Positions 484 to 24,959 of a stretch of DNA of 64,000 bases are shown here, piece by piece. The notes under the pieces were generated by a model. That model ran no database searches. It was not told where the DNA came from and saw only the letters and a program-made list of their open reading frames with translations. The stretch lies in NCBI GenBank assembly GCA_947454705.1, contig CANGKZ010000021.1:472-64471 (forward strand), written 5' to 3'. Position numbers and translations under genes: made by a program. Each line of letters begins with the position of its first letter. The stretch's first letter is position 1. The stretch is from Verrucomicrobiota bacterium. GTDB lineage: Bacteria; Verrucomicrobiota; Verrucomicrobiia; Limisphaerales; UBA9464.

Positions 484-3318
484 TCAATCGACGAACACGA
501 ACTCGTTCGCCGATAGCAGCACCTGCGCGTACTGCTCGAGCGGCGTGAGCGAATTTGCCTCGCTGCCGGAGCGCTTGAGGAATTCGCGTCCGAGCGCGCG
601 CTCGGTGTCCGCCGGGCGGCGTTGGAAGGCGACCTGGTACATCCGCTCCAGTTTTTCCTCGGGCGTGGCGGCGGAGGCGACGGCGGGTTGCGACACAAAC
701 TCGCGGGCCCGCGCGGCCATGAACGGGCTGTTCAACAGGAACAACGCCTGCTGCGGCACCGTGGTTTGAAAGCGCATCGGCGCGGTGCTGTCGGGACTCG
801 CGAAATCAAACGCCCGCAGCAGCCCTGGGAGGTTCTGTCGGTCGATGAATCCATAGAGTGTCCGGCGCGGCACGCCTGCACCTTCGAACACCGTGACCGG
901 TTGTCCGCCGACGGTTCCATCGAGGGAGCCCGACGCGGCCAGGAGGCTGTCGCGCAGCGCCTCGAAGTCGGCGCGCTTTCGGTTCATCCGCCACAGATCC
1001 TGGTTGCTGGAATCGATCGTTTCATTCTTCGCAAACGCGGCGCGCACAGCGGGGTCGGATCCTGGATCGCTCGCCTGCTGGTAGGTTGCCGACAGCAGCA
1101 AATACCGGTGCAGCGCCTTGAGGGACCAGCCGTGATCCATGAACCAAACGGCCAGATGATCCAGCAGTTCCGGATGCGTGGGCGGATCGCTGCGGACTCC
1201 GAAATCGCCCGGCGTGCGAACCAACGGAGCGCCGAAATGGAGCGCCCATACGCGGTTCACCAGCACTCGTGCGGTGAGCGGATTGTCCCGGCTTGCGATG
1301 GCCTCGGCGAGTTCGAGTCGTCCGCTGCCTTTGGTGAACGGCTTGCGCTTGGATCCGGAGACCACTTCGAGGAACTGCCTCGGTACCCGCGGACCGTGGT
1401 TCCCTGGATTGCCACGTTTGAAGACCACCGGTTCGACGGGATTGGGTTTGTCCAAAAGCGCCATGGCTCGCAGGGGGGCGCCAGGATCCGTGGCTTCCAA
1501 CTCCTCGATCTTCCGTCTCAGCGCGCGCGTCTTCTGCGCGACCGGCGTGGCAAAGAAGCGGTCGATCCCGCCCACCGATTCCTGAATCGGAGAATTCGCC
1601 GCATAGAGAACTTGTCGGAGTTCCTCGGCGTCGGGATTGGCGAGGGCCTTCGGGAGGGGTTGTGATTGAGCCTTGGCGGTCTGGACCTGATTGGTCCAGT
1701 CGGCATCCACCCGCTGAAAGACCGATTGGTATTGCTTGGACAGATCTTCGAGCGATTGCGGCGGATGCGCCCGCAGGGCCTCGGCCACCAGCGGATTCAC
1801 CGTGGGTTGTGCGCCCGGCGCGAGATGGGAGTCGATCCACGACCGCGCCTGGTTGGTGAAGCCCGCGGCAGGTAGCGCAGCGAGGGCAGTCCAGGGACCA
1901 AAGACGCGATGGGGCGCCGCCTTCCACGATTCGATGCGCGACTTCCACGCGTTGGCGAGTCCGGGATCGAGGCTGCGGGTTCGGGCCAGTTCCTCGGCTT
2001 TTCCGCCGTCGAGGGCCATGGATTCCTGCGCGGTGCGGAGATACTCGCCGATCTGGCTGCGGAGTTTCGCGAGGATTTCCTCCGTGCGATCGGCCCGGTA
2101 TTTCGCCAGCTCGTTTTCGCGACGCTGGTGTTCTTCCGCGTACTTTGCGGCGAGGAAGGGATTGGGATTCGGCCCGAGCAGCGGTTTTTCCGACGGCTCC
2201 TGGCTGCTGTCGAGAATGCCGTAAAGCGAGTAGTAATCCTCGGTGGGAATGGGATCGAACTTGTGATCGTGACAGCGCGCGCAGGCGACGGTGAGTCCCA
2301 TGGTGCCACGGCAGATGACGTCGATCCGGTCGTCGATGATGTCCGTGTTGTTGTTGAGGAATCGCCGCCCGAGGGTGAGGAATCCCTGGGCCGCCATGGG
2401 CCAGGGGTTTTCCTTGGTGGCGATCTGATCGCCTGCGATCTGCGCCACCAGGAACCGGTCGTACGGCAAATCCTCATTGATCGCCCGAACCACCCAGTCG
2501 CGATAGGTGTAGGCGTAGGCGTATCGGCGCTCCTCTTCGAAGACGTATCCCTTGGAATCGGCATACCGAGCCACGTCGAGCCAGTGGCGTCCCCAGCGTT
2601 CGCCGTATCGGGGGGATGCCAGCAGTCGGTCGATGGCGTTGGCATACGCGGCGGGGGAAGGGTCCGACACAAATGCCTCCATCTCGGCGGGAGTCGCCGG
2701 CAAGCCTGTGAGGTCGTAGGTGATCCGACGCAGCAAGGTGCGCCGATCGGCCTTGGGCATCGATTGAAGACCCGCCTTCTCCAATTTGGCCCGGACCAAT
2801 CGATCCAACGGGCTCAGCGATTCCTGGGCCTTCGCCTGCAGCTCGGGAATTGGAGGAGCCACGGGGCGCTGAAACGCCCAATGGGAATCCTGCGGACGCA
2901 CCACGGTGGAGTCGTCCCGCGGATCCGCAGCTCCGGAACGAACCCAATGCGTGAGGTCCGCGATTTCGGCGGGCGTGAGTCCGTCGCCCTTTGGCGGCAT
3001 CCGATCCAGGTCCTTGGCTGCGCCCTTGATCGATTGAATCAGCAGGCTGTCCTCCGGTTTTCCGGGAACCAAGACCGGGCCGGATGCGCCACCCTTTTGG
3101 ATTCCGGAACGCAGATCCAGTCGCAGGTTACCCTTAACGGACTTTGCTTTGGCACTGTGGCAGGAATAGCATTTTTCAGCCAAAAGGGGGCGGATCTTGT
3201 TCTCGAAGAACTCGACCTGCTCGGCGGGAAGCGCTGCGGCCGAAGCGGTTTCCAACGACAACACCGCGAGGAGGGAAACTCCGAGTCGGAGGAAGAGTGT
3301 TCGAGTAGATGACATCAT
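484..3318 (-). CDS. Secreted PSCyt1 / DUF1549 (PSCyt2) / DUF1553 (PSD1) family protein
   Basis: 944-aa ORF with signal peptide MMSSTRTLFLRLGVSLLAVLSLETASA and a CxxCH motif (EKCYSCHS) near the N-terminus. The long conserved body and the C-terminus ..LLSANEFVFVD are typical of planctomycete/verrucomicrobial PSD1 proteins. Confidence 0.9.
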   Translation of the reverse strand: MMSSTRTLFLRLGVSLLAVLSLETASAAALPAEQVEFFENKIRPLLAEKCYSCHSAKAKSVKGNLRLDLRSGIQKGGASGPVLVPGKPEDSLLIQSIKGAAKDLDRMPPKGDGLTPAEIADLTHWVRSGAADPRDDSTVVRPQDSHWAFQRPVAPPIPELQAKAQESLSPLDRLVRAKLEKAGLQSMPKADRRTLLRRITYDLTGLPATPAEMEAFVSDPSPAAYANAIDRLLASPRYGERWGRHWLDVARYADSKGYVFEEERRYAYAYTYRDWVVRAINEDLPYDRFLVAQIAGDQIATKENPWPMAAQGFLTLGRRFLNNNTDIIDDRIDVICRGTMGLTVACARCHDHKFDPIPTEDYYSLYGILDSSQEPSEKPLLGPNPNPFLAAKYAEEHQRRENELAKYRADRTEEILAKLRSQIGEYLRTAQESMALDGGKAEELARTRSLDPGLANAWKSRIESWKAAPHRVFGPWTALAALPAAGFTNQARSWIDSHLAPGAQPTVNPLVAEALRAHPPQSLEDLSKQYQSVFQRVDADWTNQVQTAKAQSQPLPKALANPDAEELRQVLYAANSPIQESVGGIDRFFATPVAQKTRALRRKIEELEATDPGAPLRAMALLDKPNPVEPVVFKRGNPGNHGPRVPRQFLEVVSGSKRKPFTKGSGRLELAEAIASRDNPLTARVLVNRVWALHFGAPLVRTPGDFGVRSDPPTHPELLDHLAVWFMDHGWSLKALHRYLLLSATYQQASDPGSDPAVRAAFAKNETIDSSNQDLWRMNRKRADFEALRDSLLAASGSLDGTVGGQPVTVFEGAGVPRRTLYGFIDRQNLPGLLRAFDFASPDSTAPMRFQTTVPQQALFLLNSPFMAARAREFVSQPAVASAATPEEKLERMYQVAFQRRPADTERALGREFLKRSGSEANSLTPLEQYAQVLLSANEFVFVD

Positions 3319-3500: not shown

Positions 3501-5117
3501 ATGGCTGAATCGATCGTCGCAGGTGGCTCGAATTCGTCCGGGGGTGGAATTGCCTCCTCGGTGAATCGTTCGTTTTTGCTGCTGCTCGGCGGTTTGTGGG
3601 CTTGGGCGGTTTCAATCAATCTGCCGTTCTGGGATACGGATCCCAACTACTCCTACGGATTTGTGGTCCCGCCGTTGGTGGTGTTTTTCCTGTGGAAACG
3701 GCTCGGTAATGAACCGCCGGAGTTTTGGAATTTTTCGTCTGCGGGTACTCCCGGACGAACCTTTCCCGCGTGGCTTCTGGCGTTGCCGGGGTTGGCTCTG
3801 TTTCCGGTGGAGGTCTATCGAATCGAATACCACCAGTCCGGAATCGTGCTCTGGGCGATCAACCTCTCCACGGTTCTTTTCACCCTTGCCGGGGCCTACT
3901 GGCTGGGAGGACGGGTCTTGTTGGGGCGCGTGCTATTTCCAGTCCTGTTCTTTCTGACTGCGGTGCCGTGGCCCGCCAAGATTGCCGTTCCGTTTCAGCA
4001 GATGCTGATGACGGGAGTCGCCCAGGTGGTGGCTGAACTTCTGTTGTGGTGTGGGATTCCTGTGAGCCTCGACGGAGCGGTTCTTCATCTGTCGAAGGGC
4101 ACGGTGGGCATCGTGGAGGCCTGCAGCGGGATTCGTTCGATTCAGTCCGGACTCATGGTGAGTCTTGCCGTGGGCGAGCTTTTGGGGATTGTCCGATCCC
4201 GGCGCTATGCGTTGGTGACGTTCGCGCTCTCACTGGCGCTGCTCAGCAACCTGGCCCGAACCTTCACCCTGTGCTGGATCATGGAGCATCAGGGGGACGA
4301 GGCGATGCACCATCGTCACGATATGGTGGGCAACATCGCCATGTATTCGCTTTATGCGCTGATCTACCTGATCGGAAAACTACAGGAGCCGAAGGGAGGC
4401 GCGCCCTGGCCGGATGGCTCCGGCAGCTGGAAGGAGCGGATGATTCGGCTTCGTTGGAGTCAGGTTCCGGATGTCCGTCCGCTGCTGGGTATCACGGTTG
4501 CAATGTTCGCGGTCGTTCATGGCTGGTATTACGTGCTGAAGGTTCGCGCGAATCCGCAGACCACCCCGTACTTCACGCTTCGCCCCGGGTTTGAAACCAA
4601 CGGCGTCGTGAAGACGGAATTCGACTCGGATGTCTGGCGCCGGCTTGGGGCGAACGATGGCGAACAGGTTCGTAAGAAGACGGCGCTCGCGCCCATGGGA
4701 ATTGCCGATGCATATCACCTGTTCTGGCGCCCTTCCCCCATGAGCAAGATCGCGCTCCACCATCGGCCGGACATTTGCATGCCCGGTTCCGGTTGGGTTC
4801 AGAAAGGGGAGGTGGAATCCATGGAGGTCATGCTCGATGGTCGATCCCTTCGGTTCCTGGTGTTCCGCTTCGAACGTGGAGATCTTCGCGCCGTGCAGGT
4901 CTGGGGCGTTTGGAGAAATGGAAAGCCGGTGGAGATGGATTACTCGAATCGGTTGACCGCATTGCCGGAAAAGTACCGGCCCGTTCCCAGCGAACGTCAT
5001 TTGATGGGCGTGGAGCTGGTTTCGCTGTTCATTCCGTATCAAGGCGAAACCCGGCCTCCGGCTTCATTGATTCAAACGCTGCTGCCTCAGCTCTTTTCGT
5101 ATCACGCCCCGGAGTGA
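3501..5117 (+). CDS. Exosortase (EpsH/Xrt family) fused to a C-terminal EpsI-like domain
   Basis: 538 aa. The polytopic N-terminal half carries the exosortase active-site motif IVEACSGIRS (Cys208), NLAR (Arg253) and an HHRHD histidine cluster. After another TM (aa ~328-346), the C-terminal ~210 aa carry HRPDICMPGSGW, the signature I associate with EpsI (DUF3485/TIGR02914). Confidence 0.85.
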   Translation: MAESIVAGGSNSSGGGIASSVNRSFLLLLGGLWAWAVSINLPFWDTDPNYSYGFVVPPLVVFFLWKRLGNEPPEFWNFSSAGTPGRTFPAWLLALPGLALFPVEVYRIEYHQSGIVLWAINLSTVLFTLAGAYWLGGRVLLGRVLFPVLFFLTAVPWPAKIAVPFQQMLMTGVAQVVAELLLWCGIPVSLDGAVLHLSKGTVGIVEACSGIRSIQSGLMVSLAVGELLGIVRSRRYALVTFALSLALLSNLARTFTLCWIMEHQGDEAMHHRHDMVGNIAMYSLYALIYLIGKLQEPKGGAPWPDGSGSWKERMIRLRWSQVPDVRPLLGITVAMFAVVHGWYYVLKVRANPQTTPYFTLRPGFETNGVVKTEFDSDVWRRLGANDGEQVRKKTALAPMGIADAYHLFWRPSPMSKIALHHRPDICMPGSGWVQKGEVESMEVMLDGRSLRFLVFRFERGDLRAVQVWGVWRNGKPVEMDYSNRLTALPEKYRPVPSERHLMGVELVSLFIPYQGETRPPASLIQTLLPQLFSYHAPE

Positions 5118-6986: not shown

Positions 6987-7766
6987 GTGTTCGCCCTATT
7001 CGACGAATTCCGAAATCCTTCCCTGCTTCTCGGCAACCCGGTTGCCTGGATTCTCATTGGATTTCAGTTGTGGATGATCATCGATGCCGTGCGTCGAGAG
7101 GAGTGGATCTGGGCCGTCTGCATCTTCTTCTTCTCGGTCATCAGCGCGTTGCTCTACTTCTTCCTCGTGTATCGAGCCCAGGGACCTGCGGCGGGCGCGG
7201 GACTCACCCGGGGATTCGAGCTCCCCGGGGCGCAGGAACGACGACGTATCCGGGAGCTTCAGGGACGGATCCACCATCTTGACAAGGCCCGCGATCACCT
7301 CGACCTCGCCGACATCTTTTTCAGCCAGGGCAAACTCAAGCAGGCCGAGGCCAGTTACCGAGCCTCGCTCGAACGGGATGGCGAGGACATCGATGCCATC
7401 GCCCATCTCGGCCAATGCCTCCAACGTCAGGGCCGGTCCGCCGAAGCCCTGCCGCTGCTCGAGCGGGCCATTGCCTCGGATTCCCGTCACGACTATGGGC
7501 ACACCCTGATGGCCCTCGCGGAAACCCAGACCGCCCTCGGAAATCCCGGGGCCGCCTTCACCACCTGGCAGCGCGTGCTGGAGAATCATGGATACGCCCG
7601 CGCCCGGGTTCAATTTGCCGAACTCCTCATCGCCCGCGACGATCGCGACCGGGCCCGCGCCGAGTTGAATGAAGTCGTGTCCGATGACGAACACGCCCCG
7701 CGGTTCCAACGGGGACGCGACAAACCCTGGATTCGCAAGGCCCGCGCCTTGCTGGCCCGATTGTGA
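6987..7766 (+). CDS. PLDc_N (cardiolipin-synthase N-terminal membrane module) fused to TPR repeats
   Basis: 259 aa. The N-terminal two-TM segment WILIGFQLWMIIDAVRREEWIWAVCIFFFSVISALLYFFLVY matches my memory of the PLDc_N domain. TPR-like repeats follow (..LADIFFSQGKLKQAEASYRASLERDGEDIDAIAHLGQCL..). The stop overlaps the next start (GTGA at 7763-7766). Confidence 0.65.
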   Translation: MFALFDEFRNPSLLLGNPVAWILIGFQLWMIIDAVRREEWIWAVCIFFFSVISALLYFFLVYRAQGPAAGAGLTRGFELPGAQERRRIRELQGRIHHLDKARDHLDLADIFFSQGKLKQAEASYRASLERDGEDIDAIAHLGQCLQRQGRSAEALPLLERAIASDSRHDYGHTLMALAETQTALGNPGAAFTTWQRVLENHGYARARVQFAELLIARDDRDRARAELNEVVSDDEHAPRFQRGRDKPWIRKARALLARL

Positions 7767-8905
7767 CCGGCACCGCTCCGAACCACGACCGATGGCTGCC
7801 CGACGGGCGTACCTATTTTGATTCGCTCGAAGCGGGCCTGCGTGCCGCGGTTCGTTCCATCCGGCTAGAAACCTATATCGTTGCGAACGATTCGACCGGA
7901 TGCCGCATTCGCGACGCACTGGTTGCCGCCGCCCGGCGCGGGGTGTCGGTGTCGGTGCTGGTCGATGGACTCGGGGCGGGTGAGCTTCCCTCCGATTGGT
8001 GGAACCCCCTGGCCGATGCGGGCGGAAAGGTGCAGGTGTTCAATCCCACCACCTCGCGGCGCATCGGCATCCGGGACCACCGGAAGCTCGTGGTGACCGA
8101 TGACCAGCACGCTTGGATTGGAGGAATCAATCTCGCGGACGAATACGCGGGAGACGGTCTGCACCAAGGCTGGGCGGATCTCGGCTACAAACTTCACGGG
8201 GCCCCCGCGGCGCAGCTTGCCGCGGAGTTCGATGCCATGTCGGCCGAATGTTCCGAGACCCAACCCAAGGTGGTCATCGGACGTATCCGACGCGGCCCGC
8301 GTCCTCCCGCCCGCGACCTTGCCCCGGGAATGCAGTTGATGCTCAGCGGCCCCGGCCGCATGGCCAACGCGTTCCAGAAAGCCCTGCGTGCGGATGTTTC
8401 CTCCGCCCAGCGCGTCCAGTTTGCCGTTGCCTATTTTCTTCCGGGCTACCGCATGCGCCGGTTGCTGCGCGGCATTTCCGTTCGTGGGGTGCCCGTGCAG
8501 ATCCTGGTGCCGGGGCGCAGCGATGTGGCCATCGCTCGGCGTGCTGCGCGTCATCTCTATGCCAGCCTGCTTCGATCGGGCATCGAACTGTGGGAGTACC
8601 AACCGCAGGTGCTGCACGCCAAACTCTTCCTGACCGAGCGTGCTGCGTATGTGGGTTCGTCAAACCTCGACACCCGGAGCCTCCACATCAATTACGAGCT
8701 GATGCTTCGTCTGACTGATCCCGTCCGAGTGGCCGAGGGACGTCAGATTTTCGAGACCCTTCGTTCCCGCGCGAAACGCGTGGATCCGGTCGCCTGGTTT
8801 CATTCCCGTTCCTGGCTCGAACGTTGGCGGGATGGGCTGGCCTATTGGATTCTCTCCCGCGCCGATCCTTACGTCACGCGCTGGCTGGCGATGGATCCGC
8901 GCTGA
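7763..8905 (+). CDS. Phospholipase D / cardiolipin synthase-like phosphatidyltransferase (two HKD motifs, no TM)
   Basis: 380 aa. First HKD is DHRKLVVTDDQHAWIGGINL. Second is VLHAKLFLTERAAYVGSSNLD (HxKx4E variant plus GSSN). There is no N-terminal TM, giving a ClsB-like soluble architecture. Confidence 0.85.
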   Translation: MTGTAPNHDRWLPDGRTYFDSLEAGLRAAVRSIRLETYIVANDSTGCRIRDALVAAARRGVSVSVLVDGLGAGELPSDWWNPLADAGGKVQVFNPTTSRRIGIRDHRKLVVTDDQHAWIGGINLADEYAGDGLHQGWADLGYKLHGAPAAQLAAEFDAMSAECSETQPKVVIGRIRRGPRPPARDLAPGMQLMLSGPGRMANAFQKALRADVSSAQRVQFAVAYFLPGYRMRRLLRGISVRGVPVQILVPGRSDVAIARRAARHLYASLLRSGIELWEYQPQVLHAKLFLTERAAYVGSSNLDTRSLHINYELMLRLTDPVRVAEGRQIFETLRSRAKRVDPVAWFHSRSWLERWRDGLAYWILSRADPYVTRWLAMDPR

Positions 8906-10809: not shown

Positions 10810-10883
10810 GCGGGTGTAGCTCAATGGTAGAGTTCTAGTCTTCCAAACTAGCCATACGGGTTCGATTCCCGTCACCCGCTCCA
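10810..10883 (+). tRNA. tRNA-Gly (anticodon UCC), CCA encoded
   Basis: Hand-folded cloverleaf. Acceptor gcgggtg/cacccgc, D stem gctc/gagt, anticodon stem ctagt/actag with loop CUUCCAA (34-36 = UCC), T arm with ggttcgattcc, discriminator U plus CCA. It is 74 nt, as is usual for Gly tRNAs. Confidence 0.85.
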
Positions 10884-11039
10884 ATTTTTCAATCCGATGG
10901 CACTCACCGCGGGCCATTGCTGTTTCATCCGCTTGTCGATTGCCACCTCCTCAGGGTCGTTTTGGTTTGGAGGGCAGGAGGGCAGTTAATCGACGTACGT
11001 TTTTACGATCTCATCTCGGATCCGCAGGATTCATCAGCC

Positions 11040-11255
11040 ATGGAAAAACCGACCCCTAAGACTCCGGAAGAGCCTCGTCCCAGAGTGGTGCAAACGTGGC
11101 GCCCGGAGGAGGATCGTCCGAGTAAGACCTTCCAATGGCTGGTCGGCCTTCCCGACAAGTTCGCCTCCCGGAAATTCAACGGCTACCAGGCTGCCCTGGT
11201 GGTGCTGATCGGAGTGCTTTTCTACGTGCTCGTTCTCGATCGGCTCGGGGGCTAG
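11040..11255 (+). CDS. Small hypothetical membrane protein (71 aa, C-terminal TM)
   Basis: First ATG (M42) of ORF 10917..11255. The upstream TTG-started part runs straight out of the tRNA flank and is unlikely to be coding. The product has a charged Pro/Glu-rich N-terminus and one TM (AALVVLIGVLFYVLVL). No recognisable family. Confidence 0.3.
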   Translation: MEKPTPKTPEEPRPRVVQTWRPEEDRPSKTFQWLVGLPDKFASRKFNGYQAALVVLIGVLFYVLVLDRLGG

Positions 11256-11330: not shown

Positions 11331-14300
11331 ATGCGACTTGTGGATTCCGCCGCTGCCGCATCGGGCGCATTCAGGATTCGTTCCAATCATTCCGGCCCGT
11401 TGTCTCCGCATTCTTCTTCGGGAGAATCGACCTTGTTCGATCTCTACCGTGCCATGTATTCCGCCCGGGTCGTCGACCAGGTGGAAATGGAGTTGGTGAA
11501 CCGCGGAGAGGCCTTCTTCCATGTCGGAGGTGCCGGTCACGAATCCAGCGCCGTTCTGGCACTCCATCTGGGACCCCAGGATTGGCTGCATCTTCACTAT
11601 CGGGACAAGGCCCTGATGCTCGCCCGCGGCGTTTCCGCGGAGATGTTTTTTCACAGTTCCATCTGCACCGCCGCTTCCCATTCGGCCGGTCGGCAGATGA
11701 GCGCCCACTTGAGCGCGCCGGAGTTGAACCTTCTGAGTCTGGTGGGGCCGGTTGGAAACAATGCCCTGCAGGCCGTCGGAGTGGCGCTCGAGGTCAAACA
11801 ACGGGAAGGGAATCCCTGTGTTGTTTGCGCCGTTGGCGATGGCACCAGTCAGCAGGGGGAATTTCTTGAAGCGGTATCCGAGGCGGTTCGATCCGAGGCG
11901 CCGGTCCTCTTTTGGATTGAGGACAACGGGCTCGCGATCTCCACCCACACGCGTGGAAAAACGCTCTATGACCTGCCGTCCGGGCCGGCGGAACAATTTC
12001 TCGGCCTCCCCATCCACCGACTCGACGGGCGTGATCCACTGAGCTGCCTCGAAGCTTCGGGCAAGATTCTCGCTTCAATGCGGGTGAATCGGGGCCCGGC
12101 CTTGGTGGTGTTTCAGGTCGATCGTCTCACGCACCACACGAACGCGGACGACGAGCGGGTGTACCGTTCCGAGGTCGAGCGTCAGAAGGTGCGTGCGGAA
12201 GCCGATCCGCTGGTGGTATTGCGCCGCTTGATCCTCGAGCAGGGGTTGAAGGAATCCTCGCTTGTGACCTCCGAAGCCGGTTGGGCTGCGGAAATCCGTG
12301 AGGCGGCGGATCGTGCCCTTCAGGCTCCGAATCCCCGGGCGAATCTGGATGCCCGGCAGCCGCTCCCCAGCCATTGCACGGGGCGGAGCGAGTATACCGG
12401 AACGGCTGGAGGCACCCGCGTGTCCATGCTGGAAGCACTCAGGGCGGTGCTGCGGAACCGTTTGGAGGGAGATTCCCGGGTCACCGTTTCCGGACAGGAT
12501 CTTGAGGATCCCAAGGGGGACGTCTTCGGTCTAACCCGGGGATTGTCCACCGCCTTCCCCGGGCGCGTTCGCAACTCACCGCTCGCGGAAAGTACGATCG
12601 CGGGCGTGGGCGTGGGACGCGCGCTTGCGGGAGGACGGCCGGTGGCCTGCATCCAGTTCGCGGATTTCATTCCGATTGCCTTCAATCAGATCGCCAGCGA
12701 AATGGGATCGATGCACTGGCGCACGGACGGCGGATGGCGCGTTCCCCTGGTGCTGATGGCCCCCTGCGGTGGCTACCGTCCGGGACTCGGACCGTTCCAC
12801 GCGCAGACCTTCGAATCCATCCTGGCGCATGTTCCCGGAATTGATGTCGCGATTCCCAGTTCCGCCCGAGATGCAGCAGGGCTGCTCAACGCGGCCCTGG
12901 AGTCGGGCCGGCCCACGGTTTTTCTCTATCCAAAAGTTTGCCTCAACGATCCCGCCCTCGCCACGAGCTCGGACATCGCCGCGCACTGGGTCGCCCCGGG
13001 CGTTGCCCGTCGGATCCGATCCGGGGACGCCCTCACATTGGTCACTTGGGGCGGAACCGTTCCCTTGGTTGCGCGGGTCGCGGACCTTCTTCAGATCGCA
13101 GGAGTCCCATGCGATCTCCTCGACCTCCGAACGGTCAGTCCTTGGGACGCGGAGGCGGTGTTGGCCAGCGCGGAGCGGACCGGAAGATTGCTCGTGGTTC
13201 ACGAGGACAACCTCACCTGCGGTTTTGGTGCTGAGATCCTGGCAACGATTGCGGAGCGGGCCAGCCGACCGGTCCGGATGCGAAGAGTCACCCGGCCCGA
13301 CACCTACGTTCCGTGCAACTACGTCAACCAGCTCGAAGTGCTGCCGAGCCTTCGACGAATTCTCGAGGTGGCGGGAGAGCTGTGCGGATTGGACGTCGGC
13401 TGGGAATCCGACGTGGTGCCGGAAGCCGGCGTTTTCAATCTGGAAGCGGTGGGATCCAGTCCGGCCGATCAAACCGTGGCGGTCGTCGAATGGAAGGTCC
13501 GCAGCGGCCAGACGATCTCCGCCGGTGATCTTCTTGCCGATTGCGAAGCGGACAAGGCCACCTTCGAGCTTCGAGCTCCCGTGGGCGGCGTCATCCAGGA
13601 TCTCCTGCCTGCCGATGAAAAGGTTCCGGTCGGATCGATTCTTGCCCGAATCATCACCTCCAGCACGCGAGCTCCTCTGCCGCGCCGGGTGCCCTTGGAC
13701 CCAGTCCCCCGTTTGACTCGGAGCTTGGTGGCACCGTCGCCCGGGTCGGTTCGGGTTGTCGAAGGCGGGGCCGAAGCAGATCGGCGATTCGTGGTGGGGA
13801 TTCGCTCCGTGGTGGGAGTTCCCGCCGGGCGCGTGGTGGACAATGCCGAAATCATCCGCCGGTTTCCGGGGCGGACTGCCGCCGACATCCTGCAACGCAC
13901 CGGAATTGAGTCGCGTCGGTTGCTGGCCCCGGGCGAAAGCGTGGTGACCCTTGCCGCCGCTGCTGCGGTTCGCGCCTTGGGGCAGTCGGGCATGACTGCT
14001 TCCGACTTGGACGCCATTTTCGTCAGCACGAGCTCGCCAGTCTCGTTGAGCCCGAGCCTTGCTTGCCTGCTGCATCACCAGCTTTCTGCGGGTGGGCCGG
14101 CCAAGGACATGCCGGCCGTAGATCTGCTCGCCGCGTGCACCGGGTACCTTTATGCCCTCCAGGCCGCGCACGATTTCTGCCGCGCACGGCCGGAGTCGCG
14201 GGTTCTCGTGGTCACCGCCGAGGCCATGAGCACGTTCACCGATCCCTCGGACTTTGATACGGCGATCGTGTTTGCCGACGCCGCCACGGCCACCGTTGTC

Positions 14301-14753
14301 TGCGGGCCTCTTGCCCCAGGTTTCTCGAACGTTCGCGCGCGGCTGCATCGTCCCGTGCTCAGCGCCCGGGGCGAAGATGGCACCATTCTCAACCACGGGC
14401 GCCGGGACCATCCGAACGTCAACATGGACGGTCTGAAGGTGTTCCCCATGGCGGTTCGCCAGCTGATTGCGCTCATGAAACGTGCGTGCGACGAATGTCA
14501 GGTTCCCATGGAATCGTTGGAGTACATCATTCCGCATCAGGCGAACGGTCGGATTCTGGACGCCGTGGACCAGCGGCTGCGGCTCCCGGCGGGACGACTG
14601 ATCAACCGGGTTCGCCATTCAGGCAACACCAGCAGCAGCTCGATTCCCCTGGTCCTTGCCGAAGTGCTTCAAGAATCGCCGAAAGGCCGCGCAGGAATGT
14701 GCGCATTCGGCGGTGGTTTTACTTTCGGGGCAGCCGTTCTTGAATTCACCTGA
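11331..14753 (+). CDS. Fusion protein: 2-oxoacid dehydrogenase E1-alpha + E1-beta + lipoyl domain + 3-oxoacyl-ACP synthase III (FabH-like)
   Basis: One uninterrupted 1140-aa ORF. aa ~35-335 is E1-alpha with the TPP motif GDG(169-171)..EDN(197-199). aa ~365-680 is E1-beta (..RNSPLAESTIAGVGVGRALAGGRPV..QFADFI..). aa ~702-775 is a lipoyl domain with ..CEADKATFEL.. (Lys742, nt 13554-13556). aa 776-818 is a Pro/Arg linker. aa ~819-1140 is KAS III with AAC(936)TGY, IPH(1069)QAN and HSGN(1099)TSS, i.e. a Cys-His-Asn triad. Confidence 0.85.
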   Translation: MRLVDSAAAASGAFRIRSNHSGPLSPHSSSGESTLFDLYRAMYSARVVDQVEMELVNRGEAFFHVGGAGHESSAVLALHLGPQDWLHLHYRDKALMLARGVSAEMFFHSSICTAASHSAGRQMSAHLSAPELNLLSLVGPVGNNALQAVGVALEVKQREGNPCVVCAVGDGTSQQGEFLEAVSEAVRSEAPVLFWIEDNGLAISTHTRGKTLYDLPSGPAEQFLGLPIHRLDGRDPLSCLEASGKILASMRVNRGPALVVFQVDRLTHHTNADDERVYRSEVERQKVRAEADPLVVLRRLILEQGLKESSLVTSEAGWAAEIREAADRALQAPNPRANLDARQPLPSHCTGRSEYTGTAGGTRVSMLEALRAVLRNRLEGDSRVTVSGQDLEDPKGDVFGLTRGLSTAFPGRVRNSPLAESTIAGVGVGRALAGGRPVACIQFADFIPIAFNQIASEMGSMHWRTDGGWRVPLVLMAPCGGYRPGLGPFHAQTFESILAHVPGIDVAIPSSARDAAGLLNAALESGRPTVFLYPKVCLNDPALATSSDIAAHWVAPGVARRIRSGDALTLVTWGGTVPLVARVADLLQIAGVPCDLLDLRTVSPWDAEAVLASAERTGRLLVVHEDNLTCGFGAEILATIAERASRPVRMRRVTRPDTYVPCNYVNQLEVLPSLRRILEVAGELCGLDVGWESDVVPEAGVFNLEAVGSSPADQTVAVVEWKVRSGQTISAGDLLADCEADKATFELRAPVGGVIQDLLPADEKVPVGSILARIITSSTRAPLPRRVPLDPVPRLTRSLVAPSPGSVRVVEGGAEADRRFVVGIRSVVGVPAGRVVDNAEIIRRFPGRTAADILQRTGIESRRLLAPGESVVTLAAAAAVRALGQSGMTASDLDAIFVSTSSPVSLSPSLACLLHHQLSAGGPAKDMPAVDLLAACTGYLYALQAAHDFCRARPESRVLVVTAEAMSTFTDPSDFDTAIVFADAATATVVCGPLAPGFSNVRARLHRPVLSARGEDGTILNHGRRDHPNVNMDGLKVFPMAVRQLIALMKRACDECQVPMESLEYIIPHQANGRILDAVDQRLRLPAGRLINRVRHSGNTSSSSIPLVLAEVLQESPKGRAGMCAFGGGFTFGAAVLEFT

Positions 14754-14847
14754 CCGGCTTCGCGGGGCGCGCTTAGGTCAAATGGAGGGATAATCCTTGG
14801 TCACTTGCGCCAAGGCAGGCGGATCGCCTACGGTCGTTGTTCAATTT

Positions 14848-16086
14848 ATGGCGCTTCTCAACGAGAACTATCTCAAACTCAAAGCAGGGTATCTGTTTCC
14901 GGAAATCGGCCGGCGGGTCAAAGCCTTTACCGAGGCCAATCCCACGGCTGCGGCTCGATTGATCCGTTGCGGCATTGGCGATGTGACCGAACCACTGCCC
15001 CCCGCGGTGATTGCGGCCTTGCATCGCGCGGTCGATGAAATGGGGCAGCGCTCCACGTTCCGCGGATACGGTCCGGAGCAGGGGTACGATTTCCTCCGTT
15101 CCGCGATCGCCCAAAACGACTACCGCGCCCACGGAATGGACATCGCAGATGACGAAATCTTCGTCAGCGACGGTTCCAAATGCGATTGCGGTGCCATTCT
15201 GGATATTCTCGGCGACCGTAATCGGATCGCCATTTCCGATCCGGTGTACCCGGTTTACGTCGATACCAACGTCATGGTGGGACACACCGGGGCGTGCGAC
15301 CCCTCCGGCGCCTATGCCGGTCTGGTCTATCTTCCCTGCACCCCGTCGAATGGCTTCATCCCGGAGCCGCCGTCGGAGGCGGTGGATGTGGTGTACCTCT
15401 GCTCTCCCAACAATCCGACCGGAGCCGCCGCCACGCGGCCCCAGCTGGAAGCCTGGGTCGACTATGCCCTGCGTCACAAGGCCATCCTGCTCTTCGATGC
15501 CGCCTATGAAGCCTACATCACCGAGCCGGGTGTTCCCCACTCGATCTATGAGATTCCCGGGGCCAGGGAATGTGCGATTGAGTTCCGCAGCTTCTCCAAG
15601 AATGGCGGTTTCACCGGGACTCGTTGCGCCTTCACTGTGGTTCCGAAGTCGCTTAAGGCATTTTCCAGCACTGGTGAAGCGCTTCCGCTTCACCCGCTTT
15701 GGTCGCGTCGCATGACCACCAAGTTCAACGGCGTTCCGTACCTCGTTCAACGCGCGGCCGAGGCGCTCTATTCTCCGGAAGGCAAGGCGCAGGTTCGTGG
15801 ACTGATTGAGCACTACCTCGGCAATGCAGCCGTGTTGGTGGCCGGGGCCCGCGCCGCAGGACTTACGGTGTACGGCGGCGTCAACGCGCCCTACATCTGG
15901 GTGGCAACGCCCTCCGGCGTGACCAGCTGGCAGGCCTTTGACCGCATTCTCAATGACGCCAATGTCGTCATCACCCCCGGAAGCGGGTTCGGTTCCAAGG
16001 GCGAAGGCTACTTCCGGGTGAGTGCCTTCAACTCCAGAGCCAACGCCGAGGAAGTCTCGCGCCGCCTCCAATTGTTGAAGTGGTAG
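14848..16086 (+). CDS. dapL: LL-diaminopimelate aminotransferase
   Basis: Starts at ATG M18 of ORF 14797..16086. [37 protein letters not shown].. is the characteristic DapL N-terminus. The fold-type I aminotransferase body includes ..[13 protein letters not shown].. (PLP lysine). Confidence 0.9.
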
Positions 16087-16180: not shown

Positions 16181-17566
16181 TCAAGTGGTGAGTTGACTGA
16201 GACGTCCCGTGCTGTCGCCGAATCGCTCGCCCGGAACACCCATGCGGTCGAGCATGGAGAGAAACAGGTTCGCCATTGGGGTTTCCTTGGGCAGGCGGAT
16301 GTGGCGGCCCGGTTGAATCGATCCGCCGCCCCGACCTGCCAGCAGGATTGGGAGATTGTCGTGGGCGTGGGCGTTGCCGTCCGCAAGACCGCTGCCGTAC
16401 ATGATCATCGATTGGTCGAGCAGGTTACCGGAGCCCTCTTGGATTGATTTCAGTTTTCCGAGGAAATAGGCCAATTGTTCAAGGTGGAACCGATTGATCT
16501 TGGCGATCTTCTTCTTTTTCTCCTCGTCGTTCTGGTGGTGGGAGAGGGTGTGGTGGCCGTCTGGAACTCCGATTTGAGGGTAGGACTCGTCACTCCCGTC
16601 GTGCTTCATCACGAAGGTGGCGACCCGGGTCGAGTCGGTCTGAAACGCGAGCGCCAGGATATCCAGCATCAGGCGAGAATGGGGCTGGAAATCGGGACGC
16701 CCTCGATCATTTCGAGGGATTCCCGTGGGTTTCTGGAATCCAGGCATGTCTTTGCCTACGCGCTTCGCCATTTCGATGCGGCGTTCCAAATCACGCACGG
16801 AGGTCAGGTATTCGTCCAATTTGCGCTGATCGGTCCTTCCGAGCCGGGCGTTCAGCGTGCGCGCATCTTCCAAGACGAAATCGAGGATGCTTCGTTCCGA
16901 GCGTTCCCGGCGAATCCGGCGTTCGTCGGTCTCCTCCCGGTTCGAAGACGCGAACAGGCGTTCGAACGCCAGCGCAGGATCCACTTCCGGCGGAAGCGGG
17001 GAAGAAGGGGTGCGCCAGGCAATGTTGAAGGAGTAGGCACAACTGTAGCCTGAGTCGCAGTTGCCGGAGGTCTGTCCCCGGTCGCATCCCAATTCGAGCG
17101 AGGCGAACCGGGTTTCCCGCCCGAGGCGCTGCGCCGCGACCTGATCCACCGAAACGCCGGCATGGATATCCACACCGTTGGTTTTTCGGATCCGGGTGGA
17201 AGTCAGCCAAGTTGCGGACGCCCGGGCGTGATCGCCCGCTCCGTCCAATTTGGCTCGCCCCGCGTCCTGAGTCAGCCCGGAGAGAATGCTGAACTCGGAG
17301 CGCAGTTCTCGCAGGGGTTCAAGAATCGGAGGGAGTTCGAAATGGCTTCCTACGTCCTTTGGTGTCCAGTCGGCCATGTTGATTCCGTTCGGGACATAGA
17401 TGAAGGCCATGCGTTTTGGAGCCGCGCCACCTGCAGCGGCTTGAAGCGCGCCGGACGCCTCAGCAAGAACTCTTGCGCTTCCGAGCGATTCAAGAGCGGG
17501 CAGGGCAACCAGAGTGCCCAGTCCGCGAAGAAATTGACGTCGGGCGATGGGAAGGGCCGTTTTCAT
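16181..17566 (-). CDS. DUF1501 domain protein (sulfatase-like fold, Tat signal)
   Basis: 461 aa with a twin-arginine leader MKTALPIARRQFLRGLGTLVALPALES. The conserved DUF1501 body ends ..GNAHAHDNLPILLAGRGGG..MANLFLSMLDRMGV..FGDSTG. Confidence 0.9.
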   Translation of the reverse strand: MKTALPIARRQFLRGLGTLVALPALESLGSARVLAEASGALQAAAGGAAPKRMAFIYVPNGINMADWTPKDVGSHFELPPILEPLRELRSEFSILSGLTQDAGRAKLDGAGDHARASATWLTSTRIRKTNGVDIHAGVSVDQVAAQRLGRETRFASLELGCDRGQTSGNCDSGYSCAYSFNIAWRTPSSPLPPEVDPALAFERLFASSNREETDERRIRRERSERSILDFVLEDARTLNARLGRTDQRKLDEYLTSVRDLERRIEMAKRVGKDMPGFQKPTGIPRNDRGRPDFQPHSRLMLDILALAFQTDSTRVATFVMKHDGSDESYPQIGVPDGHHTLSHHQNDEEKKKKIAKINRFHLEQLAYFLGKLKSIQEGSGNLLDQSMIMYGSGLADGNAHAHDNLPILLAGRGGGSIQPGRHIRLPKETPMANLFLSMLDRMGVPGERFGDSTGRLSQLTT

Positions 17567-23383: not shown

Positions 23384-23459
23384 GGGCGAGTGGCGCAGTG
23401 GTTAGCGCAGCTGCTTTACACGCAGTTGGTCGGGGGTTCGAATCCCTCCTCGCCCACCA
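23384..23459 (+). tRNA. tRNA-Val (anticodon UAC), CCA encoded
   Basis: Hand-folded. Acceptor gggcgag/ctcgccc, D stem gcgc/gcgc, anticodon stem gctgc/gcagt with loop UUUACAC (34-36 = UAC), T loop ttcgaat, discriminator A plus CCA. 76 nt. Confidence 0.9.
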
Positions 23460-23510: not shown

Positions 23511-24959
23511 TCACGGCTTCGACAGGGCTTCCGCGCGAAGCTTGGTTTCCGACAGGACCCGCAGTTGCAAATTGCGAACCACCGGAGTGCACCACCATCC
23601 CCAATATTCCGCGGGCCAGAGACCGTGCTGAAATCGCGTGGTGCCACGGAGAAGGGTTCCGCTGGGAACCGGCGTGAGTTCGAACGACGCGTGGTTGACC
23701 TGATAATAGCCGTCAAGATGCCGGGGATGCAGATGGCGATAAGGCGTCCACTCCTCCATCGGAACCGGGGTGGAATCCACCCGGAGTTCGAGTCGTCGCG
23801 GGGGATCCCAGACCTCCACCGTCTCCTGCGCGACGCCAGTATGGAATTCGCACACGCGGGTCGCTCCCTTTCCGACGCCGGAGGTCCAGGCTCGATGGAA
23901 GGTGGCGATGTTCACCTTGGCCCACAGGCTTTGCGCGCGCGGGAGTTCGTCCACGTCCACAATCAGGGGCCAGATGCGCTCTGCGGGCGCAGCGATCAAC
24001 ACGCTGCTGCTTACGGTGAATTCAGGGGCGGATTCGGAACGGTTTTGCTCGGTCACCCAGAGCAGGGGAATCGAGAACAAGGCTACGCACATGACTTTCG
24101 GGTCCCGGGTACGTCCCGTTGCGACGAGCAACGCCTGGCCGGTCAGTCCGCCGAGGATTGCCAACGCGCTTGCAATCGGGGCTGCCATCACCAGACAAAT
24201 GATTCCCTCGACCGCCAAACCGAACAGAAGGATCCCGGACAGGATGACCGTCATCATGCTCAACCGGACGGCATCCCATCGACGCAGACCGTGCTGCCAT
24301 CCGTAGAGCGTGGTGGAGAACAGTCCGAGCAGAAACGGAGTCGCTGCAAACAAGGCCCAGCCGTAGTCCCCAAACACCTCGGTGCTGATGGCGGTGAATG
24401 ACACGCCGATGCAGGCGGAGATCAACACCACCGTGAGCGCGCAGCCCCAGGGCGACTTCGGAAGCAGCCCCAAAGGTTGCCTGGAGAGGGATCCGAACTC
24501 AGAGAGCGATTTCTTGGCGTGAATCGAAGTGGGAACGATCCCCAGCAACAGGAGGACGATCAGGCGAACTCCGGGGATGAGGAGCAGCAGTCCCCAGGGT
24601 AAAGCGATGCCGATGTCGCGGAGGCGTCCCACGGTGGCAAGAATTCCGACTGCGAACACCGGAAGGGTGTAAAAGTGAATCCGTGACCCGAGGATTCCCG
24701 ATGTATCCCCGGAGGCTCCGGGTACCCAGTGGAACAGGGAATCGTAAAGCGTCGTCGCCACTGTCGAAGGGACCAAGCTGATTTCCGCCGGCGTGCGGAA
24801 ACGATGCAAGTTGTAGTGCGTGAGTGCTGCGAGCAGACACACGAACAGATATCCACTGCGGCCAAAGCGGAATCCCTCGGTTGCGAAGCGAGGGTGGTCG
24901 GGTTTACGCACGTCGCTCGACTCCGGATTGGAGGGCGGGATGGGAGATGGCTCGCTCAC
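23511..24959 (-). CDS. Polytopic membrane protein (DUF805-like segment) fused to a C-terminal SRPBCC (START/polyketide-cyclase-like) domain
   Basis: 482 aa. TM region with ..GRLRDIGIALPWGLLLLIPGVRLIVLLLLG.. (DUF805-like). The C-terminal ~150 aa ..IAAPAERIWPLIVDVDELP..ATRVCEF..ETVEVWDPPRRLELRV.. looks like SRPBCC. Confidence 0.7.
   Translation of the reverse strand: MSEPSPIPPSNPESSDVRKPDHPRFATEGFRFGRSGYLFVCLLAALTHYNLHRFRTPAEISLVPSTVATTLYDSLFHWVPGASGDTSGILGSRIHFYTLPVFAVGILATVGRLRDIGIALPWGLLLLIPGVRLIVLLLLGIVPTSIHAKKSLSEFGSLSRQPLGLLPKSPWGCALTVVLISACIGVSFTAISTEVFGDYGWALFAATPFLLGLFSTTLYGWQHGLRRWDAVRLSMMTVILSGILLFGLAVEGIICLVMAAPIASALAILGGLTGQALLVATGRTRDPKVMCVALFSIPLLWVTEQNRSESAPEFTVSSSVLIAAPAERIWPLIVDVDELPRAQSLWAKVNIATFHRAWTSGVGKGATRVCEFHTGVAQETVEVWDPPRRLELRVDSTPVPMEEWTPYRHLHPRHLDGYYQVNHASFELTPVPSGTLLRGTTRFQHGLWPAEYWGWWCTPVVRNLQLRVLSETKLRAEALSKP

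Follow-up and report, generated by a model that had tools for sequence, protein, structure and literature searches.

What can a protein do that joins the decarboxylating half of a 2-oxoacid dehydrogenase, a lipoyl carrier domain and a ketosynthase of the type that starts fatty-acid synthesis, with no E2 acyltransferase core between them? The question is raised by an open reading frame (ORF) at positions 11331-14753 of a 64-kb stretch of DNA from a Verrucomicrobiota bacterium (GCA_947454705.1, contig CANGKZ010000021.1; the whole stretch of 64,000 nucleotides is referred to as the window). The ORF, which lies on the + strand as do all features within it, encodes an E1alpha-E1beta-lipoyl-linker-KAS III fusion, KAS III being beta-ketoacyl-acyl carrier protein (ACP) synthase III. 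We read this fusion as a self-contained primer synthase in which a 2-oxoacid would give rise to new acyl chains with no need for coenzyme A (CoA), and on the strength of sequence comparison we give this reading a probability of roughly 0.55.

Domain architecture and predicted structure

The ORF is the longest in the region and runs in one frame from ATG through 1140 codons to TGA with no internal stop, as a preliminary description made from the sequence alone had reported, and it has full-length homologues. A Pfam scan recovered six domains in the order E1_dh, Transket_pyr, Transketolase_C, Biotin_lipoyl, ACP_syn_III and ACP_syn_III_C, which upholds the domain order proposed in that description, including the absence of an E2 core, and adds domain boundaries to it. 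The E1alpha module (E1_dh, residues 39-336; 11445-12338; E = 1e-40) is followed by the E1beta module (Transket_pyr, residues 364-535, and Transketolase_C, residues 557-668; 12420-13334; E = 1e-24 and 2e-26) and by a lipoyl domain (Biotin_lipoyl, residues 716-774, within a fold of about 700-776; 13476-13652; E = 6e-12). The KAS III (FabH-like) domain occupies residues 822-1140 (13794-14750) and was recognised by Pfam, NCBIfam, PDB and Foldseek comparisons; within it, Pfam places ACP_syn_III at residues 931-990 and ACP_syn_III_C at residues 1053-1138. Neither 2-oxoacid_dh (the E2 core) nor E3_binding gave a Pfam match in the fusion protein, even at E ≤ 0.1. The DHRxxDG-type motif of E2 enzymes, already noted as absent, was not found by a motif search of the whole 1140-aa protein for DHR or [DN]H[RK]xx[DE]G, whereas E2-core sister proteins (see below) have DHRxxNG.

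Between the lipoyl and KAS III domains lies a flexible linker (residues 777-821; 13659-13793) rich in Ala, Pro, Ser, Thr and Arg, with a predicted local distance difference test score (pLDDT) below 50 at residues 799-817. The Pro/Arg linker described earlier is thus present, as a Pro/Arg/Ser-rich segment predicted to be disordered. Across the family both linkers vary in length (19-42 aa for the first, 28-66 aa for the second, which joins lipoyl domain and KAS III) and are unconserved in sequence; being Ala/Pro-rich and predicted to be disordered, they resemble the swinging-arm linkers of E2 proteins. An AlphaFold2 model of the fusion, built with 69 homologues, reached a mean pLDDT of 86.5 and a predicted template-modelling (TM) score of 0.70, with low confidence confined to the N-terminal 30 residues and linker residues 799-817. 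In Foldseek comparisons the E1beta part matched 1um9_B at a TM score of 0.92 and the KAS III part matched E. coli, S. aureus and B. subtilis FabH at 0.91-0.93, while none of the solved structures searched spans the entire fusion chain.

A widespread and uncharacterised enzyme family

Fusions of this kind are not confined to the window. A word-indexed search of 5.8 billion proteins, grouped into clusters at 90% identity, gave at least 120 clusters that share the domain set, nearly all of them full length (1058-1207 aa) and 54-77% identical. HMMER, run exhaustively over 1.84 billion cluster representatives, added depth, with about 35 full-length representatives of 50%-identity clusters matching the query end to end at identities down to 38%. 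Furthermore, a scan of one genome per GTDB species detected at least 80 loci among 575 candidate stretches, in which the whole 1140-aa query was matched in one frame and in one high-scoring segment pair (HSP), save for cuts at contig ends and two frameshifted copies. The same domain order is therefore found in at least 80 species-level genomes from several phyla, which answers the question of taxonomic spread that the preliminary description had posed.

Going by record titles, the carriers include many Verrucomicrobiota, among them a complete Limisphaerales chromosome (OZ260084.1), and Planctomycetota of the Pirellulaceae, Isosphaeraceae (including cultured Tautonia sp. JC769, NZ_JBFEFH01) and Phycisphaeraceae. 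Others are Actinomycetota (Thermoleophilia/Miltoncostaeaceae), Spirochaetaceae, Hydrogenedentota, Sumerlaeia, Lentisphaerales, Kiritimatiellia and a few proteobacterial metagenome-assembled genomes (MAGs). Database names of the homologues are generic ("transketolase", "2-oxoisovalerate dehydrogenase E1 component", "beta-ketoacyl-ACP synthase 3"), and none of the curated family models among the matches (NCBIfam and others) names this fusion. Keyword searches directed at the fusion, over about 8.3 million full texts, brought up no description of it either, in line with the earlier remark that the domain order was not recognised as that of a described enzyme, and papers on verrucomicrobial lipids assume the textbook route from the branched-chain 2-oxoacid dehydrogenase (BCKDH) to FabH. 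It had been allowed that the architecture might turn out to be common and already characterised; it is common in metagenomes, but it is not characterised. We conclude that this is a real enzyme family, widespread in mostly uncultured lineages and uncharacterised.

The probability that the long ORF results from misassembly, or from read-through of separate E1, lipoyl and fabH genes, is virtually nil. Such an artefact could be suspected from the related contig L003, which has the region in three frames, and from L060 and L062, which have one frame change each. It is contradicted by the single frame and single HSP in the at least 80 loci from many laboratories, samples and phyla (contig-end cuts and the two frame changes aside), by the at least 120 clusters at 90% identity with identical architecture, and by the position of one of the L003 breaks, which falls inside Transketolase_C (query residue ~600) and marks the frameshifts as errors. 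For the same reason we rejected L003 3531-6951 as a natural split-gene version. Apart from these copies, the frameshift or assembly error named earlier as a possible flaw is not seen across independent genome loci.

Two minor observations concern the family members themselves. The copies in L003, L060 and L062, in two or three frames, look like sequencing frameshifts or pseudogenes, not like genes split by nature. In addition, seven fusion-bearing MAG contigs (L023, L030, L035, L036, L038, L041 and L078) are titled Cyanophyceae, Bdellovibrionales, Bifidobacterium breve/sp. or Neisseria sp.; L023 and L030 group with verrucomicrobial copies, L035, L036, L038 and L041 with those of Miltoncostaeaceae/Actinomycetota, and L078 with low-identity copies from mixed phyla. 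Several of these taxon labels look mis-binned or mislabelled.

The E1 and lipoyl modules

The catalytic motifs that had been picked out in the preliminary description (GDG..EDN, EADKATFE with Lys742, and Cys936/His1069/Asn1099) all lie at the positions first given. The thiamine pyrophosphate (TPP)/Mg motif covers 31 residues (G169-D170-G171...E197-D198-N199, pattern GDG-X25-EDN; 11835-11927) and closes with the Asp-Asn (11922-11927) of EDN, where the canonical pattern GDG-X(25-30)-NN has NN. As D198 and N199 are invariant in 120 homologues, this ending is, by alignment, a family trait and no defect. G169 and D170 are also invariant in the aligned homologues, as is His269 of E1alpha (12135-12137), which aligns with the reductive-acylation residue His291alpha of human BCKDH (1dtw_A, IGHHSTSDD). 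His490 of E1beta (12798-12800) lies in an HAQT motif resembling the HSQS catalytic histidine motif of E1beta subunits and, going by the motif alone, would be the equivalent of His146beta' of human BCKDH. Both histidines are invariant in 69 aligned close homologues. Taking the TPP motif together with the conservation of His269 and His490, the E1 part still appears capable of acylating a lipoyl arm.

The lipoyl-lysine is Lys742 (13554-13556; motif CEADKATFE), kept in 120/120 close and 36/37 diverse homologues. Against the PDB, the middle domain matches E2 lipoyl domains at E = 1e-10, far above biotinyl domains, and NCBIfam PRK14875 is the best full-length E2 model match of the lipoyl domain.

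The alpha and beta parts are fused in one chain, whereas classical heterotetrameric E1 has separate subunits; some of the relatives are E1 proteins, about 660 aa long, with alpha and beta likewise fused. The E1 half is closest in the PDB to BCKDH-type and Gram-positive-type E1 (1um9 A/B, 1ik6, 1dtw, 1w85), with E1alpha bit scores of 124 for 1um9_A, 100 for human BCKDHA and 90 for Geobacillus pyruvate dehydrogenase. The E1alpha motifs GRQM and HHTNADDxxYR are BCKDH-like, and the PDB and NCBIfam scores together favour a BCKDH-type E1 without being decisive. In the KAS III domain, the position of FabH Phe87 holds Thr or Ser in the 37 diverse representatives of the family, and a residue of this kind opens the acyl pocket in the wide-pocketed M. 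tuberculosis FabH. In cultured Limisphaera species, anteiso-C15:0 and iso-C16:0 rank as major fatty acids. Because of the BCKDH-like E1alpha, the Thr/Ser at the Phe87 position and these iso/anteiso lipids, our best guess at the substrate is a branched-chain 2-oxoacid, with pyruvate and longer oxoacids also possible; such a substrate is plausible, as are fatty acids for the fate of the product.

The KAS III domain keeps the triad and loses the CoA-adenine residues

The C-terminal 320 residues match FabH of many bacteria in the PDB (E = 1e-44 to 1e-35). Cys936 (14136-14138), His1069 (14535-14537) and Asn1099 (14625-14627) align with Cys112, His244 and Asn274 of E. coli FabH, and this triad is invariant or nearly so in the 120 close and 37 diverse homologues; by alignment it is of the decarboxylating, condensing KAS III type. 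The TPP motif and Lys742 are equally well kept in both sets, and by this conservation all modules of the fusion are under selection. The oxyanion Phe-Gly-Gly region is retained in the family, and the equivalents of the pantetheine-tunnel residues Met207, Gly209, Phe213, Ala246, Asn247 and Ile250 are retained in the 37 diverse representatives. Among these, Arg1074 (14550-14552), the equivalent of FabH Arg249, is Arg in 33/37 and Lys in 3/37; Arg249 is reportedly the key ACP-docking residue of FabH (Zhang et al. 2001).

The residues that bind the far end of CoA are replaced. In FabH, Trp32 and Arg151 sandwich the CoA adenine and Thr28 hydrogen-bonds to it, while Arg36, Asn209/210 and Asn246/247 hold the pantetheine (PMC4606726). 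In the fusion, the alignment puts Asp852 (13884-13886) at the position of Trp32; this residue is Asp in 117/120 close homologues and Glu, Asp, Gln, Lys or Ala, never Trp, in the 37 diverse ones. Phe975 (14253-14255) takes the place of Arg151, being Phe in 120/120 close homologues and Phe, Pro, Tyr, Lys or Ile, never Arg, in the diverse set. Thus none of 157 family members has Trp or Arg at these two respective positions, and the Thr28 position holds Arg, Trp or Lys. Both Trp32 and Arg151 are present in the canonical FabH structures 8vd9, 4nhd, 4ryb and 1hn9, which stem from B. subtilis, V. cholerae, N. meningitidis and E. coli, and in the stand-alone FabH of contig L002; the A. aeolicus structure 2ebd was read for Arg151 only. 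The Foldseek matches include 2aj9, a W42A/R161A variant of M. tuberculosis FabH, which reflects the same idea of an adenine sandwich. This is the pattern expected if malonyl-ACP still enters the pantetheine tunnel while the nucleotide of an acyl-CoA goes unrecognised. Because the KAS III lacks the CoA-adenine residues, CoA is probably no intermediate.

A conventional CoA relay that is merely tethered, in which a separate E2 core or free CoA would yield acyl-CoA for the KAS III and the fusion would serve to raise local concentration, is distinctly improbable on this evidence. A relay would suit the known use of acyl-CoA primers by FabH enzymes and the retention of both the pantetheine tunnel and the Arg36 equivalent, and the search for E2 genes covered the flanks of loci. 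Set against this are the replacement of Trp32, Arg151 and Thr28 throughout the family and the lack of an adjacent E2 gene in 81 loci, at which all ORFs within 7 kb of the gene were clustered. Furthermore, a lipoyl domain with neither a peripheral subunit-binding domain (PSBD) nor a core cannot join an E2 core, and sister proteins put an E2 core in place of the KAS III, not in addition to it.

Relatives with a different acceptor domain

These sister proteins came from the HMMER scan, in which relatives of the E1alpha-beta-lipoyl chassis bear different C-terminal domains at the same junction. An E2 core with DHRxxNG is found in proteins P0148, P0181, P0189 and P0195-P0197, and in P0222 the core lacks the motif. 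P0204 combines the chassis with an E2 core and an ACP, and P0156 with a thioesterase. In P0128 (1942 aa) the order is E1-lipoyl-KASIII-KR-ACP, KR denoting a ketoreductase, and in P0180 the order E1-lipoyl-E2core-ACP-KS-MT-C-A forms the head of a polyketide synthase/non-ribosomal peptide synthetase (PKS/NRPS) megasynthase. The genes of three variants lie at 6226-9540 of L086 (P0148), 463-3738 of L088 (P0156) and 10001-15829 of L085 (P0128); those of P0148 and P0128 are also solitary.

The E1-lipoyl regions of P0148, P0151 and P0156 are 54-58% identical to the nearest KAS III fusions, above the median of 45% among the fusions themselves, and judged from these identities the acceptor domain is exchanged on one chassis. 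Since an E2 core or a thioesterase in that place can act solely on the acyl-dihydrolipoyl group, the simplest reading by analogy is that the KAS III acts on the arm as well. The KR-ACP that follows the KAS III in P0128 would imply that a 3-oxoacyl product is made on ACP. From their domain content these proteins look like members of one modular family that loads acyl groups derived from oxoacids, of which keyword literature searches found no description.

The exchange of acceptors also bears on whether the KAS III condenses at all. It might be a pure acyltransferase, a surrogate E2 that would pass the acyl group from the lipoyl arm to CoA or holo-ACP with no condensation and so make the fusion a compact 2-oxoacid dehydrogenase, and its place at the position of the E2 core invites this view. 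FabH has a side activity as a transacylase, KAS III-like proteins of the CerJ and DpsC type are pure acyltransferases, and AcoC-type E2s show that a non-canonical fold can be the catalytic domain of an E2. We nevertheless hold this to be highly unlikely: the invariant His1069, Asn1099 and Phe-Gly-Gly serve malonyl decarboxylation and condensation, not acyl transfer, whereas in acyltransferases of the KAS III type the triad is usually altered. The fusion has lost the residues that bind CoA, and a KR-ACP behind the KAS III in P0128 makes sense only with a 3-oxoacyl product.

One relative has no acceptor domain. It is a 781-aa E1alpha-beta-lipoyl protein whose gene, at 6001-8346 of L004 (GCA_001720395.1, MDTU01000001.1), immediately precedes those of a SET-domain protein, a WelO5-like Fe/2-oxoglutarate (2OG) halogenase and an alpha/beta-hydrolase. 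Together these genes may make up a small natural-product cluster with a lipoyl-bound substrate.

A proposed route from 2-oxoacid to 3-oxoacyl-ACP

For the fusion as a CoA-free primer synthase we propose the following cycle. The fused E1alpha/beta would bind TPP and decarboxylate an aliphatic 2-oxoacid to the acyl-TPP enamine, then reductively acylate Lys742-bound lipoate of its own chain or of its dimer partner. Carried by its two flexible linkers, the lipoyl domain would swing across to the KAS III, where the S-acyl-dihydrolipoyl thioester would pass to Cys936 by thiol-thioester exchange, a step that would stand in for both the E2 core and acyl-CoA. Malonyl-ACP, supplied in trans and docked via Arg1074, would be decarboxylated with the help of His1069 and Asn1099, and decarboxylative Claisen condensation of the malonyl unit with the acyl-Cys would release 3-oxoacyl-ACP into type II fatty-acid or lipid synthesis. 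Re-oxidation of the dihydrolipoyl arm would fall to a free E3 (Lpd) whose gene lies elsewhere, as it does for the H protein of glycine cleavage. A homodimer would provide both an (alpha-beta)2 E1 and a FabH-type dimer. In this cycle we infer reductive acylation, arm transfer, condensation, re-oxidation, substrate, homodimer and product fate from the sequence features given above.

The short circuit from lipoyl arm to Cys936, suggested in the preliminary description, gains indirect support from the lost CoA-adenine residues, the interchangeable acceptor position and the relative with KR-ACP. Delivery from a lipoyl domain to a carrier protein that bypasses CoA has a precedent in QncN/QncL/QncM, where QncL consists of E1beta, lipoyl and acyltransferase domains and the acyl group passes from lipoyl to carrier protein, not to free CoA (PMC6335953).

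The enzyme appears to be self-contained. In the 81 loci there is no conserved neighbour: no family occurs in more than 12 loci, those that recur reflect clade-local synteny or are generic kinases, and none of the recurrent families is an ACP, E2, E3 or lipoate ligase. As the gene is solitary and has no conserved partner, we regard it as a unit that would rely on the housekeeping ACP and E3, with its partners (ACP, malonyl-ACP supply, E3 and lipoylation system) encoded elsewhere.

Several points weigh against the proposed cycle. The protein has no E3-binding domain and no E3 gene lies nearby, hence re-oxidation of the arm is an assumption. The lipoyl-lysine arm is shorter than phosphopantetheine, and its reach to Cys936 through the FabH tunnel is likewise assumed. 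The canonical FabH background for Trp32 and Arg151 is small, comprising six sequences and the literature. The equivalent of Arg36, which contacts the phosphopantetheine of CoA, is still Arg in 118/120 close homologues and would fit either ACP-pantetheine or CoA. The KAS III domain scores below the NCBI cut-offs for FabH, with 238.5 against 249 bits for PRK09352 and 213.8 against 292 for TIGR00747; it is FabH-like but outside the bona fide FabH family, so that FabH-like activity is predicted, not guaranteed. Planctomycetes carry the fusion yet mostly make straight-chain fatty acids, and a branched-chain role may not be general.

The last two points would also suit the same chemistry in a specialised role, in which the fusion provides the starter or first extension of a specialised lipid or polyketide-like product while a canonical FabH does the housekeeping. 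Chassis relatives inside PKS/NRPS-type megasynthases (P0180, and P0204 with its E2 core and ACP), the KR and ACP added in cis in P0128, and the E1-lipoyl-only relative beside WelO5-like and hydrolase genes in L004 all lean this way. We consider such a role unlikely, though deserving of some weight, as the 81 loci show neither biosynthetic-cluster context nor a conserved neighbour. The gene sits among housekeeping genes (tRNA, dapL), and its 55-77% identity across many Verrucomicrobiota, roughly tracking taxonomy, is more like that of a core gene.

Comparison with known systems

The closest textbook counterpart of the proposed primer synthase is the BCKDH complex of Bacillus, Staphylococcus and Listeria, which feeds FabH via acyl-CoA. 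The two are alike in the TPP motifs of E1, the lipoyl-lysine arm and the Cys-His-Asn KAS III, but the fusion is one chain with E1alpha and E1beta joined and has no E2 core, DHRxxDG motif or E3/E1-binding domain. Compared with FabH itself (TIGR00747/PRK09352), the KAS III has the same fold at 30-37% identity, the same triad and tunnel and the Arg249 equivalent. It differs in standing behind a lipoyl domain and in four positions, where Trp32 is replaced by Asp/Glu, Arg151 by Phe/Pro/Tyr, Thr28 by Arg/Trp/Lys and Phe87 by Thr/Ser.

The Qnc/SclQ1-4 loaders of C2 units in non-ribosomal peptide pathways share with the fusion an E1-type, TPP-dependent enzyme joined to a lipoyl domain, and the chassis relatives with E2 core and ACP (P0204, P0180) look Qnc-type. 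QncN/L/M, however, has an E2-type acyltransferase, a dedicated ACP, a ketose phosphate donor and a biosynthetic cluster, whereas in the fusion a condensing enzyme serves as the acceptor, and the gene stands alone, with neither an acyltransferase domain nor an ACP nearby and no cluster context. The E2 of acetoin dehydrogenase (AcoC type) also has a lipoyl domain followed by a catalytic domain unlike the classical E2 core; in AcoC this is an alpha/beta-hydrolase that makes acetyl-CoA, and in the fusion it is a thiolase-fold condensing enzyme instead. Alternative initiators reportedly include FabY of Pseudomonas and MadA/MadB, which are said to use acetyl-CoA with a KAS I/II-type enzyme or the decarboxylation of malonyl-ACP. 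The Mad precedent is described in PMC8666670. The fusion would be another non-canonical initiator of type II synthesis, though of wholly different chemistry, as those systems involve neither TPP nor lipoate.

By sequence features, then, the fusion fails the defining features of an E2 (it has no core), of FabH (it has no CoA site and scores below the cut-offs) and of a classical E1 (its subunits are fused). By analogy it is like a BCKDH-plus-FabH system collapsed into one chain minus CoA, or a Qnc loader with a condensing enzyme in place of the acyltransferase.

A broader claim, which we put forward tentatively and at somewhat less than even odds, is that Limisphaerales-type Verrucomicrobiota, many Planctomycetota and further lineages, most of them uncultured, prime type II fatty-acid synthesis in a lipoate-dependent manner without CoA, by a single homodimeric enzyme that hands the acyl group from lipoyl arm to ketosynthase cysteine. 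The C-terminal domain would then decide what the chassis, as a general plug-in loader, puts out: a CoA ester, a free acid, an ACP ester or a condensed product. If true, this would be the first transfer from lipoyl to ketosynthase and a new class of initiator of fatty-acid synthesis, and it would tie oxoacid and amino-acid metabolism to lipid synthesis while bypassing the acyl-CoA pool. Reconstructions of lipid metabolism from the genomes of the abundant, poorly cultured Verrucomicrobiota and Planctomycetota of soil and freshwater would change, and the route could account for the making of iso/anteiso biomarker lipids in such organisms. The interchangeable acceptor (E2 core, thioesterase, KAS III or KAS III-KR-ACP) suggests a modular loader that may help to engineer fatty-acid and polyketide pathways with starters derived from oxoacids.

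Genomic context in the window

The flanks of the fusion gene are as first described, namely a tRNA and a small ORF on one side and dapL on the other, and ORF scans of the window bore out that no ACP, E3 or E2 gene is adjacent. Upstream lie tRNA-Gly(tcc) (10810-10883) and a 112-aa ORF (10917-11255, + strand) with no Pfam or NCBIfam match; the latter is probably no gene, in which case about 450 bp upstream of the fusion would be untranslated. Downstream, dapL (14797-16086; TIGR03542, 557 bits against a cut-off of 365) begins 44 bp after the fusion. None of the 20 window ORFs scanned is an ACP, E2 or E3, and tblastn found no AcpP-like or second FabH-like sequence in the 64-kb window. Upstream of the fusion no riboswitch or leader was found, the tRNA alone being detected, nor was a sigma-70-like promoter. 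Two terminator-like sites were detected, both within the ORF, where shuffles lead one to expect 4.8.

A second FabH and ACP near a fusion gene occur on one other contig only. L002, compared at 13700-15400 with the 850-kb L001, encodes an identical fusion protein, P0070, but the two contigs diverge past the downstream rhomboid gene, where L002 has a fabH-acpP-fabF segment of actinobacterial look that is riddled with frameshifts. This contig is probably chimeric or poorly assembled, and its FabH, which keeps Trp32/Arg151, served as a control only.

Elsewhere in the window, 2.4 kb upstream of the fusion, a gene (7763-8905, + strand) encodes a protein with two PLD domains, a ClsB-like cardiolipin synthase by similarity (202 bits against a cut-off of 281); this neighbourhood of a lipid gene is not conserved at other loci. 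A 482-aa ORF (23511-24959, - strand) has a weak SRPBCC (Polyketide_cyc2) domain in its C-terminus only and adjoins tRNA-Val (23384-23459). Genes at 484-3318 (- strand), 16181-17566 (- strand) and 3501-5117 (+ strand) encode PSCyt1/PSCyt2/PSD1 (DUF1549/DUF1553), DUF1552 and exosortase EpsH proteins. Such PSCyt/PSD1, DUF1552 and exosortase genes are, like the ClsB-like one, typical of the Planctomycetes-Verrucomicrobia (PVC) group, in keeping with the verrucomicrobial affinity seen in the best homologues.

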